Shown here: positions 34,101 through 37,100 of the stretch, in pieces
Position numbering within the stretch: the stretch's first letter is position 1
Layout of the letters: each line of letters starts with the position of its first letter
NCBI GenBank assembly: GCA_039621445.1
Contig: CP154954.1
Span: 44,557,847 to 44,621,846 of the forward strand
Length of the DNA: 64,000 nucleotides
From: Euglena gracilis
Taxonomy: Eukaryota
Direction: 5' to 3'
The notes under the pieces: generated by a model
What the model was told of the DNA's origin: nothing
Seen by the model: the letters and a program-made list of their open reading frames with translations, nothing else
The model's database searches: none
Position numbers and translations under genes: made by a program

Positions 34101-37100
34101 GACGCGGCCCTTGGGGAGTGTCTGTCCCTGGGGGAGAGGAGCCGGTCTGAATGGACCCCCCGAGAAGTTTCAGCCGATTCCGAGCAACGTCTTGTTGTCC
34201 AGCAGAAAGAACCGCAAGTGAGCCAGCCATCCCCCCCAGGGTGTCAAGTGGGGGAGGGGAGGGGGGTCAGACCCCCCCTCCCCCCCTTCGGACCGGGGGG
34301 GGGGGTCCAGGACCCCCCAGGAACCCCAAAAATGTTTTTACAGGGGGAGAGGCAGGGATAGATGGGAAGCCTTGAAGGGGGGGGTCGGACCCCCCCCTCC
34401 TACCTCGAAACTGAAGGGGGCCCGGAAAGTTTTCGGTTTTGTGAACAGGCAAAGGCCCGAAACGCAGGCCAAAATTGGGCAAAAATCCCTGATTTTTTAT
34501 TGAAACTAATTCCAAAAATGCCCATTTTTTTAAATTTTTTAAATTCTAACATTTTTTTTTTCACGTGGAAAACACCAAAACATCAAAGAATGCAATGGCC
34601 AGGGGGGTCCGGACCCCCCCCACCACCCACCTCAAAACCGAAGGGCTTCCCATCTCTCCCTGGGGAGGGGGTGGTGGTCCGAACCCACCTGCCCCCCCTC
34701 TGGGGGAGGGAGGGAGTCCAACCCCCCCCCCCCCCCTCCCCGTTCACCTAATGCCCTGCCCCCCACCCCCTGCAGCCCTCCCCCCGGCCCTGCCCGGTGG
34801 CCAAGGCGTTCGGCCACGAGTACATCCCCCTGCCCCCGCAGGAGGAGGGGCGGGTGCATGCCATCAAGCGCATCATTTGGAACGAGGGCCCGGTGGCGGC
34901 CGCAGTCCAGGGTTCGATACAAGGGGGGTGTATGGGGTTTAGGCTGCCCCCCCACCCCCCCTCCTCTTGGACCGAGGTGTCCGGGCCACCCCCCCCCCTC
35001 GCCTTGCAAGGGGGTCCAGATTGACCCTGGAGGGTATCCGGGTCCCCCAAAAGGTCAATTTTCTCCTTCTGGCACTTTGCGCCCTTTTTTTTTGGAATTT
35101 GCCCAAAACGTGCCCAAAATGGCACTTTTGGCTGACTTTGGGCGGCAAAATTTTCCGCCTGGCGTTTTGTGCCGGGCCAAAAATCGGTCACCCGGGCCAT
35201 GCCACTGTTTCGATGGGGGGGGGGGGGTCCCTTCCCCTTCCACGAAGAGGGCTCCCCACCTGCCTTTATATTGAGCCCTGCCGCAGTCGCAGTGAACCGC
35301 GCCTTTCAGGCCTACACTGGAACAGAAGCTTCTTGCCCACACCGAAAACAAACTCGCGCGCACACACACATGCACAGGCAAACTCTATCAGGTAAAACCC
35401 CGCAAGTGTAAAATCAGTTTCATATTTGGGCGGAAATTTCAAGACCCCCACGGGGGGTTTAATCACCTCCTCTCCTCGGATGTCGGTGATTCAGTGGCCT
35501 CGGCACTCGAAACGCCCGAAATTGAGCCATCAAGCGAGTCTCCGAAGAGGGTTTCTTCCATTGGAAGCAACACAAGAGGACTACGAGGCACAAAATGGAA
35601 AAGGACAGAAAGTCGCCAGAAGCTTGGGTTTCCCCCATATATAACCCCCCCCCCCCGGATCCAAAGCTGATGTTTTATATTTGGGGGGGGTGCATTTGGG
35701 GGGTTTTGCATTTTTTCCCCCTGGATTGAAGGATGTTTCCTGCATAATTTCAAAAGGCCAACAGTTTTCCCTCTGGAAGGTCAGCCCACAGGTGGGGGGA
35801 CAACGACAACCCCCCCCCTGTGGGGGTGTCGGAGGAGTTGAGCCAGCCCCGCCGACCCAGGGGCTCCTGCCGCGGTGGCATCTTCAACGAGGAGAGCGAT
35901 GCCCCCCCCACCCAGGGCCCACCGACGGGCACCGCCCCAGAGCCCTTGTGATGGAGCTGCGTGCTCCGCTGCGATGGCGGAGGTATGTCTTTGGAATGGA
36001 CCCCGCCCGCATCCCACCCCCCCGGGGGGTCTTGCGCGCTGGACCCCCTCCTTGTGCTGAAGTTGCACCTCACCAACAACTTTTTTCCCCAAAAACGTTG
36101 AGAAAAGCAATCTAACTGTGAAAAGGACATTGTTTTGAGGGCTTTGGGTATTCTCCTTAGTTGCCGCCAGCACGGAGCCTTTTTGGACGCCCCCGCTTGA
36201 ACCCCCTCAACACATCCGCGAATTTCTCGCCGAGTGGATTTGCTCCTCCTGCATTCCTGACAGCCCCCTCTCCTCGCTTAACTCGCCAGTACGCATTTGC
36301 TGAGGGCTGCCATATGCATTTGCCTTCACTTTGCTGCATCCGCACCTCCACGTCCAATTTTCGGATGCCTGGCCTTGATTAGGTCACCAAATGGTGGCCC
36401 TCACAACAAAAACTATTAAGAGGTGGACCAAGGTTGTGTCCACTTTTTTTGAGTAACAAAAATCATGTGCATCGATGGGGCTGGGGCTTCTGTGGATTAC
36501 AGGGATAATGTTCAGACAAAACGGTCATCCTCCGTTTGATGTGCCCCCAGGGGAAATTTCACGTGACGGGGGAGGTGGCCCGGCGCTGAGACAGGTCAAC
36601 AGAGAATCAAAGATGATTTTCTGTCCCCTTCCCCGCTGCCCGCCCTGGCTGCAACCATGCGGTGCTCCTGATGGGGTGGGGGCCGGGGTACTGGCTGCTG
36701 CGCAACTCCTGGGGCCCCGGCTGGGGGGAGGCGGGCTACATGCGCATCCGCCACGGGTGCCACGGCGTCGGCCGCTACGCCAACTACGTCGTCCACCCGT
36801 ACCGTATGCGCTCTCTGCCCCGCCACAGAGAAACCTCGTTTGGTTTTCATCACGAGTACGGGGCACTTGTTTTGTGGCAGGCATTTGGACGCCACCTTGT
36901 TACCGAGAGGAATGACACTAGCACGACGAAGCTAGGGACCCATCCCATACCGCGCGGCGGGAGGCCATTTGGTGGCAGAGCCAGAACCTGCCGCTGCCTT
37001 CCACAGGGGACGCCAGCTCCCTCCACTGCCAGGCTCGCTCCGTGCAGGGCCACCTCCGCGGGGCTCAGGCCAACTGTCCGCACTCATTGGCGTGGGGCTG

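Follow-up and report, generated by a model that had tools for sequence, protein, structure and literature searches.

Where the nonconventional introns of euglenids come from, and why their boundaries carry asymmetric spacers of 3 and 5 nt, has been a question since the 1990s. The locus analyzed here raises it in concrete form. Within the window, that is, the entire 64-kb stretch of Euglena DNA under study, a 373-nt MITE with the ends CAGGG...CCCTG interrupts a coding exon of a Peptidase_C1 gene, at positions 34908-35280. Is this element itself an intron? We put the probability at roughly 85% that the MITE is excised as a nonconventional intron together with one copy of its target duplication (TSD), with restoration of the mRNA. 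The locus gives direct evidence for the suspected transposon origin of euglenid nonconventional introns.

The MITE in the protease exon and its family

The earlier note had placed a MITE between perfect repeats inside the protease coding sequence, and this is what we see: two perfect copies of CCGCAGTC, at 34900-34907 and 35281-35288, flank the element. Its first bases are CAGGGTTCGATA and its last bases TATTGAGCCCTG. These terminal arms are identical at 10 of 12 positions as DNA, whereas all 12 positions pair as sense RNA, two of them as G.U. In the RNA fold, the 12-bp terminal stem is retained in both the MFE and the centroid structure; the z-score of the whole sequence is only -2.0. The two G.U-preserving substitutions in the 3' arm were considered as a sign of selection and rejected, the chance of this outcome being about 1 in 4 for two transitions. 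The features of the site are as follows.

34792..34904, + strand: upstream coding exon of the Peptidase_C1 gene, from transcript contigs
34900..34907, + strand: upstream TSD copy, CCGCAGTC; positions 1-5 exonic, positions 6-8 forming the N3 spacer of the intron
34905..35285, + strand: intron, 381 nt, GTC-CAG...CTG-CCGCA followed by G; the sole register fitting the published code
34908..35280, + strand: MITE of 373 nt; diverged full-length copy of a family with n=5 copies in the window
34908..34919, + strand: 5' terminal inverted repeat, CAGGGTTCGATA, opening with the CAG of the splicing code
35269..35280, + strand: 3' terminal inverted repeat, TATTGAGCCCTG, closing with the CTG of the splicing code
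35281..35288, + strand: downstream TSD copy, CCGCAGTC; positions 1-5 forming the N5 spacer, positions 6-8 opening the next exon (G, a purine)
35286..35319, + strand: downstream coding exon of the Peptidase_C1 gene, from transcript contigs

The terminal motif, with no more than one mismatch, is found at 11 places in the window (0.91 expected), a number attained in 0 of 100 shuffles. Five head-to-tail pairs account for ten of these matches, and the eleventh (5725) is a solitary end. Alignment of the five paired copies, each with a perfect 8-bp flanking repeat, shows that they comprise one family, with two copies of about 400 nt, two internally deleted ones (200 and 127 nt), and the diverged full-length copy in the intron. 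As expected of MITEs, they are 127-400 nt long and non-coding, with 12-nt arms, perfect 8-bp TSDs at 5/5 copies and deletion derivatives. The four copies outside the protease exon are listed below.

7627..8020, + strand: family copy, 394 nt, TSD CCCGGCGT
15435..15834, + strand: family copy, 400 nt, TSD GGGTGCTT; within an inferred intron of the paralog
30474..30673, + strand: family copy with internal deletion, 200 nt, TSD GGGGGGGG
46728..46854, + strand: family copy with internal deletion, 127 nt, TSD AGCATGGG

All four had been claimed beforehand, with intact terminal inverted repeats and 8-bp TSDs, and all four were found, the TSDs being perfect. Their claimed location in non-coding DNA is confirmed in part: the copy at 15435 lies in the inferred paralog intron, and those at 7627, 30474 and 46728 may lie in non-coding DNA. 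The k-mer depth of the MITE interior in the DNA run X1, which is a rough indicator only, is very high. A metagenome scan with the 17-nt MITE end returned 23 loci, all of them chance matches of 17-21 nt and none with a second arm.

A census of CAG/CTG inverted-repeat pairs in the window (arms of at least 10/12; n=188) gave flush exact flanking repeats of length 0 in 117 pairs, 1 in 45, 2 in 13, 3 in five, 5 in two and 8 in six. In 20 shuffles, 0 of 1381 CAG/CTG pairs reach an 8-nt flanking repeat. Only the CAG row of the scan over all trinucleotides was used, the palindromic tandem repeats near 38-40 kb swamping the others. In at least three families with CAG...CTG ends in the 64 kb, the duplications are 8 bp long; lengths above 5 other than 8 are absent.

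The family may be hAT, to judge from its 8-bp duplication and CAG ends. With hAT MITEs the window elements share the 8-bp duplication, a hAT trait, and short terminal inverted repeats starting with CAG, and the Ac/Ds ends start with the same five bases. An 8-bp TSD is not exclusive to hAT, being also made by P, Merlin and others. The hAT target preference is for T at duplication position 2 and A at position 7; here, in a small sample from a GC-rich genome, T2 occurs in 1/8 and A7 in 0/8 duplications. No transposase was detected by Pfam among the ten longest ORFs of the window, the only match being a low-complexity PARP match below the cut-off, and Rfam returned 0 families for the window.

Absence of the MITE from transcripts

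Transcript contigs from two studies (X15 and X19) skip 381 nt, the length of the MITE plus one TSD, and join 34898 to 35280. In X15 record 9, a 1196-nt contig with a depth of 12.8, positions 601-709 correspond to 34790-34898 and positions 710-748 to 35280-35318, with 0 extra letters and nothing between 34898 and 35280; the other introns in its span are also gone. In the other study, X19 record 14 covers 34851-34898 and then, 74 nt on, 36652-36736; the two exons between 34898 and 36652, the individual pieces of which are not among the matches listed, measure 39 + 35 nt = 74, matching the gap. The predicted 381-nt loss, reading GCC GCA GTC GCA GTG, is thus shown by the X15 contig, and the X19 contigs are consistent with it. 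The runs X15-X20 were tagged 'RNA?' by guess only; X15 and X19 are taken as cDNA because six introns are removed in them, as is a seventh whose joint was deduced from a loose contig end. The joint evidence comprises 15 of 43 joints listed, and among those listed there is none from the raw RNA run X21 (about 5% of it, depth ~1). Neither unspliced pre-mRNA nor a circular form of the intron was seen.

The DNA run X1 has both junctions filled: record 2 runs from 34776 to 35061, and record 3 from 35120 to 35297. The depths of these contigs, 23.2 and 23.7, are about half the 40-54 found further along the gene, where allelic variants run at about 21-25 each, and therefore the insertion may sit on only some haplotypes. 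Given this half depth, the several haplotypes visible as variants in X1 and the listing of 15 of 43 joints, one could suppose an insertion polymorphism, in which the mRNA comes solely from a MITE-free haplotype and the filled allele is unspliced or silent. We consider this unlikely. The MITE insertion contains every element of the code that, in the knock-ins described in part of PMC12501133, is sufficient for synthetic introns, and the X15 contig has 0 differences from the filled haplotype of the window over 535 nt; the exons carry no variant that links the transcript to that haplotype. In X1, the depth of the bin 34777-34889 equals that of the single contig crossing the filled junction, so no second contig is present there, a weak argument given that contigs drop variants. 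The filled allele probably served as the template from which the spliced transcripts were made.

Excision of the element from the DNA of some cells, with transcripts made from the repaired gene, is formally conceivable since the MITE ends are intact; no observation supports it. The transcripts of two independent studies show the exact loss of the MITE and one TSD copy, whereas a cut-and-paste event tends to leave behind a footprint or the two copies of the duplication, and we regard this explanation as highly improbable.

Because of the direct repeats, the splice junction slides over 9 nt, and the transcript alone permits ten registers, 34899-35279 through 34908-35288. Euglenid nonconventional introns leave as full-length RNA circles once the conventional introns are gone; with the TSD intact, the circle sequence would be identical in every one of the ten registers. 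A single register, 34905-35285, fits the code N3-CDG/CH'G-N5 followed by R, with the 12-bp stem and 8/8 TSD identity. According to the part of PMC12501133 on knock-ins, the 5' spacer must be 3 nt and the 3' spacer 5 nt, with 6 tolerated, CAG/CTG pairing is needed, and the exon must start with a purine. The +4/-6 arithmetic of the earlier note is correct and coincides with this spacer rule, 3 nt before CAG and 5 nt after CTG: the N3 and N5 spacers add up to 3 + 5 = 8, the length of the TSD, and therefore the mRNA is restored exactly. The joined mRNA encodes a stretch as long as the homologous stretch of the paralog.

In the code register, the 381-nt intron begins with GT, as it might if the ordinary spliceosome removed the MITE at cryptic sites, by analogy with maize Ds and the green-algal introner elements. 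However, this register ends with CA, and, read from the sequence, none of the 10 possible registers has a GT-AG or GC-AG boundary (GT occurs at shift 6 only, AG at shift 7 only, and GC at shifts 0 and 3). The same gene contains an intron of the ordinary kind, which looks quite different.

36804..37006, + strand: GT-AG intron, the only one in the Peptidase_C1 gene; looks quite unlike the 381-nt intron

Spliceosomal removal thus has next to no plausibility, and the MITE is probably removed by the nonconventional machinery. Under this preferred reading, a non-autonomous CAGGG...CCCTG MITE that makes an 8-bp TSD would have entered an exon of a papain-family protease gene in the euglenid nuclear genome. 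In the pre-mRNA, the terminal repeats would pair, drawing the MITE ends together, and a nonconventional splicing activity would read the paired CAG/CTG. The cuts would fall 3 nt short of CAG and 5 nt past CTG, where a purine follows. With both spacers lying in the TSD copies and summing to 8 nt, the element plus exactly one TSD (381 nt) would leave, and the mRNA would regain its pre-insertion sequence and reading frame.

Relation to known introns and transposons

As described in parts of PMC3935182, PMC4770533 and PMC12501133, euglenid nonconventional introns share with the 381-nt intron the lack of GT-AG, the pairing of CAG at +4..+6 with CTG at -8..-6, paired ends, a purine that opens the next exon, and direct repeats that make the boundary slidable. 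The 381-nt intron differs from them in being a member of a multi-copy MITE family with sister copies that have intact TSDs. No transposable element was known from euglenids in 2014, according to a passage of PMC3935182, and in 2025 the origin of the introns was still called unclear, slidable introns being left out of the motif analysis in the sections of PMC12501133 concerned. A parallel, intron 4 of gapC in E. agilis ACOI 323, is likewise young and nonconventional, with eight-nucleotide direct repeats at its junctions; however, in 2016 it was read as a break-repair footprint, and the passages of PMC4770533 devoted to it report no repeat family or terminal inverted-repeat element.

Compared with spliceosomal introners, the 381-nt intron has an 8-bp TSD, a terminal hairpin and a fixed 3/5-nt ruler, and it lacks GT/GC-AG boundaries. 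The introner elements of Micromonas and Aureococcus are reportedly the subject of Huff, Zilberman and Roy 2016. As in our case, these are DNA transposons that become introns, the element being removed with one TSD and the insertion being neutral, but they use spliceosomal GT/GC-AG sites, one of which is built from a 3-nt duplication (PMC11282704, in part). The introners of Amoebophrya (PMC7789003) and Fritillaria borealis (PMC11282704) resemble the 381-nt intron in being non-GT-AG, with inverted and direct repeats at their ends, and in being suspected to derive from MITEs. They differ in their 3-5 nt duplications and variable splice sites, and only 10-31% of them are assigned to MITE families in the parts of PMC7789003 and PMC11282704 that bear on this; for Fritillaria, a modified spliceosome has been invoked (PMC11282704, in part). 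Maize Ds is also removed as an intron (Giroux 1994, as cited in a passage of PMC3935182), but its removal is imprecise and performed by the spliceosome.

A MITE origin was put forward as a plausible hypothesis in publications of 2014 to 2025, and 'TSD-like' repeats are likewise a published hypothesis; the caution of the earlier note on priority was justified. In the text passages covered, we found no named MITE family for a euglenid intron, no 8-bp duplication rule and no hAT link, nor a statement that 3 + 5 equals the duplication length; two items with a possible bearing on priority are the sliding-distance bar chart in PMC12501133 and Table S3 in PMC4770533. The present locus supplies a named element, a MITE family member that works as an intron with sister copies bearing 8-bp TSDs in the same 64 kb, and ties the measured spacer rule to a property of the transposase, the length of its staggered cut. 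The question of origin can now be put to the test with available assemblies, RNA-seq and the knock-in assay already published, and the introner principle, a transposon born as an intron, would extend to splicing without GT-AG sites.

The other introns of the gene and the 3/5-nt spacing

A paralog of the protease gene, with exons between 12291 and 17312, is uninterrupted at the site of the MITE intron, as had been claimed: its exon 13362-13541 reads through. The features relevant to the comparison of introns are listed below; those of the paralog introns come from homology only.

33521..33829, + strand: older nonconventional intron of the Peptidase_C1 gene, AGC-CAGGGATG...CCTCCCTG-TGGTT followed by G; joint from a loose X15 contig end
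34085..34789, + strand: neighbouring intron of 705 nt, lacking in the paralog; ends carry a perfect 8-nt repeat, CTGCCCGG
34353..34662, + strand: member of a second MITE family inside the neighbouring intron, ends CAGGGATAGATG...
13362..13541, + strand: paralog exon, uninterrupted at the positions that correspond to the two young introns

That 3 + 5 equals 8 may well be a legacy of the intron class having descended from elements that make 8-bp duplications. In its full form, the proposal is that the 3/5-nt ruler exists because the intron class descends from one CAG-ended transposon superfamily with 8-bp duplications, element and TSD being erased exactly in either orientation if TSD position 6 is a purine; here we see about even odds. 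If true, exon insertions would be neutral. The high shares of nonconventional introns (about 70%) and of slidable introns (about 84%) in Euglena would thereby be accounted for, and an identical dinucleotide at both junctions would represent the surviving duplication positions 5 and 6.

Alternatively, the MITE is removed as a nonconventional intron but the match of 3 + 5 to 8 is coincidental, most such introns not coming from elements with 8-bp duplications and the 8-nt repeats of young introns arising in double-strand-break repair, as was held for the eight-nucleotide repeat of the E. agilis gapC intron (PMC4770533, in part). We regard this as doubtful, albeit with real points in its favour. 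In register 34087-34791, the neighbouring intron 34085-34789 conforms to the code in its CGG...CCG variant. It has a perfect 8-nt repeat even though k-mer depth (20.8) marks its 5' part as single-copy and it has no flush terminal inverted repeat; the second MITE inside it (34353-34662) has 19-nt arms that are 95% complementary and a duplication of 7/8. The older intron 33521-33829 is non-slidable, with the 3/5 geometry and CAGGG ends, and has 0/8 duplication positions left. In the code register, duplication identity is 0/8 for this intron, 2/8 for the inferred paralog intron at about 14988-17222 and 6/8 for 34085-34789. These three, scored as nonconventional introns present in one paralog and absent from the other, show that an intact duplication is not universal, in a sample of one gene.

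Against coincidence, and in favour of descent from 8-bp-duplication elements, stand the at least three CAG...CTG families of the same 64 kb, in which 8 bp is the sole duplication length above 5. Moreover, CAGGG follows N3, as in the MITEs, in four introns: one is an inferred paralog intron, and three belong to the target gene, which has six nonconventional introns. In five of those six, both junctions have the same dinucleotide, at what would be TSD positions 5 and 6.

No match was returned when longer proteins were searched with the paralog exon 13362-13541. Immediately upstream of this exon, homology places another intron.

~13090-13355: putative paralog intron, after ...DYPY, from homology only

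From an unchecked reading of the sequence, one more site in the paralog may begin with CAGGG after N3.

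Family of the inserted element and its host gene

The window sequence carries CCGCAGTC twice, at 34900-34907 and 35281-35288, and between the two copies sits a 373-nt element that starts with CAGGGTTCGATA and ends with TATTGAGCCCTG. With at most one mismatch, this terminal motif has 11 matches in the window against 0.91 expected (0 of 100 shuffles reached 11), and 10 of the 11 pair up into five elements, all flanked by perfect 8-bp repeats that differ in sequence at each element:

7627-8020, MITE family copy, perfect 8-bp flanking repeat
15435-15834, MITE family copy, perfect 8-bp flanking repeat
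30474-30673, MITE family copy, perfect 8-bp flanking repeat
34908-35280, MITE copy inside the + strand protease gene, perfect 8-bp flanking repeat
46728-46854, MITE family copy, perfect 8-bp flanking repeat

In the alignment, the five copies form one family, with two copies of about 400 nt, two internally deleted ones and the diverged full-length copy at 34908-35280; the group is a MITE family. The arrangement described in the earlier note, a MITE between perfect CCGCAGTC repeats with four further copies bearing 8-bp duplications, is real by the window sequence, the motif scan and the repeats at all five elements. The k-mer depth in X1, a DNA run, is about a thousand-fold higher over 35003-35228, 34325-34437 and 35342-35454 than over adjoining unique sequence, so the genome must contain the MITE interiors in very many copies; depth is high there in the RNA-like contig sets, too.

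The host is a papain-family protease gene on the + strand, with a PF00112 match in exon 36653-36802 (E = 4.9e-11). A diverged paralog at 12291-17312 also matches PF00112, and its uninterrupted protein reading at the homologous site confirms the claim that it has no intron there. The catalytic cysteine position is occupied by serine in the MITE-bearing protease (33395-33469), which is still transcribed and spliced and retains the His and Asn motifs; the paralog motif (12291-12335) is canonical. In or beside the protease gene introns there are long microsatellites of the types (CA)n, (TGTGGG)n and (GT)n (33656-33755, 37134-37436 and 33274-33372).

Removal of the MITE and the splice register

Among 24 sequencing runs from one organism, 14 DNA-like runs hold 0.61-0.68 of the words and six small ones hold 0.11-0.12, approximately the exon share. 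Four runs were compared with 33760-37120, namely, X1 (DNA), X15 and X19 (contigs from different studies, tentatively taken as RNA) and X21, a raw RNA run sampled to about 5%. Record 9 of X15 (1196 nt) consists of 33830-33879, 33971-34084, 34790-34898, 35280-35318, 35874-35908, 36652-36803 and 37007-37042 at consecutive record positions, with no other letters. It omits 34899-35279, that is, 381 nt, the MITE (373) plus 8, exactly the length predicted in the earlier note; the joined message matches the predicted mRNA sequence, is in frame, and has the length of the paralog at this site. As far as listed, X19 records 11 and 14 are consistent with this splicing. The X1 DNA contigs 34776-35061 and 35120-35297 each run unbroken over one end of the MITE.

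The junction is slidable over 9 nt, allowing ten registers, none of which, as read from the sequence, combines a GT or GC start with an AG end. A single register, 34905-35285, reads GTC-CAG...CTG-CCGCA followed by G and, unlike the others, matches the code N3-CDG/CH'G-N5-6|R, defined by Nomura et al. through knock-in mutagenesis. In that assay, only a 3-nt 5' spacer works, the 3' spacer has to be 5 nt with 6 tolerated, CAG/CTG pairing is needed, and the exon must begin with a purine (PMC12501133). As RNA, the terminal arms pair at 12 of 12 positions, two of these G.U, in the MFE and centroid structures alike. The N3 spacer corresponds to positions 6-8 of the upstream duplication copy and N5 to positions 1-5 of the downstream one; together they make up the 8 nt of the duplication, so that exactly one copy is removed. 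The +4/-6 arithmetic proposed from sequence, excision of the element with one duplication, is right and rests on an experimentally measured spacer rule, and the removal mechanism fits the experimentally defined nonconventional code.

A haplotype with an empty site may exist, given that the depth of the filled-junction contigs of X1 is roughly half that of downstream unique sequence, that several haplotypes are visible, and that the run comparison lists 15 of 43 joints. However, the filled site satisfies a code that knock-ins show to suffice.

Other introns and the transposon origin

The X15 contig implies seven introns in the protease gene, the first from the loose end of the contig:

33521-33829, + strand, nonconventional, AGC-CAGGGATG...CCCTG-TGGTT|G, non-slidable
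33881-33971, + strand, nonconventional, CAA/TTG replacing CAG/CTG (sequence read by eye)
34087-34791, + strand, nonconventional, CGG/CCG variant
34905-35285, + strand, MITE intron
35320-35874, + strand, nonconventional, 3/5 geometry
35910-36652, + strand, nonconventional, 3/5 geometry
36804-37006, + strand, GT-AG, the sole conventional intron

All six nonconventional introns have the 3/5 geometry (3 nt before CAG, 5 nt after CTG, or their variants); CGG/CCG was functional when tested (PMC12501133). The 5' and 3' junction dinucleotides are identical in five of the six (G|G, T|G, A|G, G|G, C|A; chance about 0.07 per intron), and the shared dinucleotide falls where duplication positions 5|6 would be. 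The three older slidable introns among them have their 2-nt repeat exactly astride the cut.

Intron 34085-34789 (705 nt), which the paralog lacks, is bounded by a perfect 8-nt repeat, CTGCCCGG. Depth shows a single copy of its 5' part, and its ends lack a flush inverted repeat; in the code register, the arms CGGGTGGAGGG and CCCTCCCCCCG pair at 10 of 11 positions and the duplication is 6/8. Possible origins are a low-copy element, filler from break repair or capture mediated by a transposase. In the intron after FQAYT, probably common to the paralog, which reads GGC-CAGGGAAC there, the repeat is down to 2 nt. Intron 33521-33829 is also missing from the paralog, yet its duplication identity is 0/8. 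The paralog's own putative nonconventional intron at about 14988-17222 (2.2 kb), placed by homology and harboring MITE copy 15435-15834, reads GCA-CAGGGAGG...CCTTCCTG-GATTT, with 3/5 geometry and duplication 2/8; the MITE-bearing gene has no intron at that place. The 0/8 and 2/8 cases count against a simple age rule for duplication decay.

A MITE origin of euglenid nonconventional introns was proposed in 2014 from inverted repeats alone, in a text stating that no transposable element was then known in euglenids (PMC3935182). A gapC intron specific to one strain and bearing eight-nucleotide repeats was described in 2016 and attributed to break repair (PMC4770533). The text of a 2024 review mentions TIR-like CAG/CTG and 'TSD-like' repeats and contains none of '8 bp', '8-bp' or 'hAT' (PMC11282704). 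In the text of the 2025 PNAS paper, slidable introns (84.4% of all, 69.1% of nonconventional) are left out of the motif analysis, the word 'duplication' is absent, and intron origin is called unclear (PMC12501133). Neither a survey of E. gracilis introns from 2024 nor a diplonemid paper from 2025 takes the matter further, and in our search of article texts, no paper identified a euglenid intron with a named MITE family or equated 3 + 5 with duplication length. For spliceosomal introners, splicing out of the transposon with one duplication is established (PMC11282704). The MITE intron is a concrete new case of an intron born from a transposon, here where splicing does without GT-AG sites, and makes the decade-old MITE hypothesis countable genome-wide. 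Extension to nonconventional introns at large is a candidate generalization from a sample of one gene.

Other CAG-ended elements in the window

Scanning the window for CAG...CTG inverted repeats (arms of at least 10 of 12, spacing 40-3000 nt) yielded 188 pairs, with flush exact repeats of 0 (117 pairs), 1 (45), 2 (13), 3 (5), 5 (2) and 8 nt (6); none of the 188 had 4, 6, 7 or more than 8 nt. Of 1381 pairs from 20 shuffled sequences, none reached an 8-nt repeat. The sixth perfect case, 57693-58106, is a separate MITE-like family with CAGGCT... ends, and 11052-11183 is its partial relative. Further families, each with a 7/8 duplication, are represented by 18134-18450 (CAGGCT... ends) and 34353-34662, nested in intron 34085-34789. 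Because several CAG-ended families carry 8-bp duplications, such elements are a superfamily-level feature of this genome. By its 8-bp duplication and CAG ends, the MITE is a candidate hAT element; no transposase was found by Pfam among the ten longest ORFs of the window, and the hAT target preference does not show in eight duplications.

Elsewhere in the window, interstitial telomere-like arrays (TTAGGG/TTGGGG units; 39901-40061 and 4719-4783) adjoin palindromic GGTTGGGCCGCGGCATGCCGCGGCCCAACC repeats (38003-38292, 40029-40413), and dispersed duplicated segments share 93-98% identity (39190-39656 with 58408-58875; 2122-2421 with 4245-4544).
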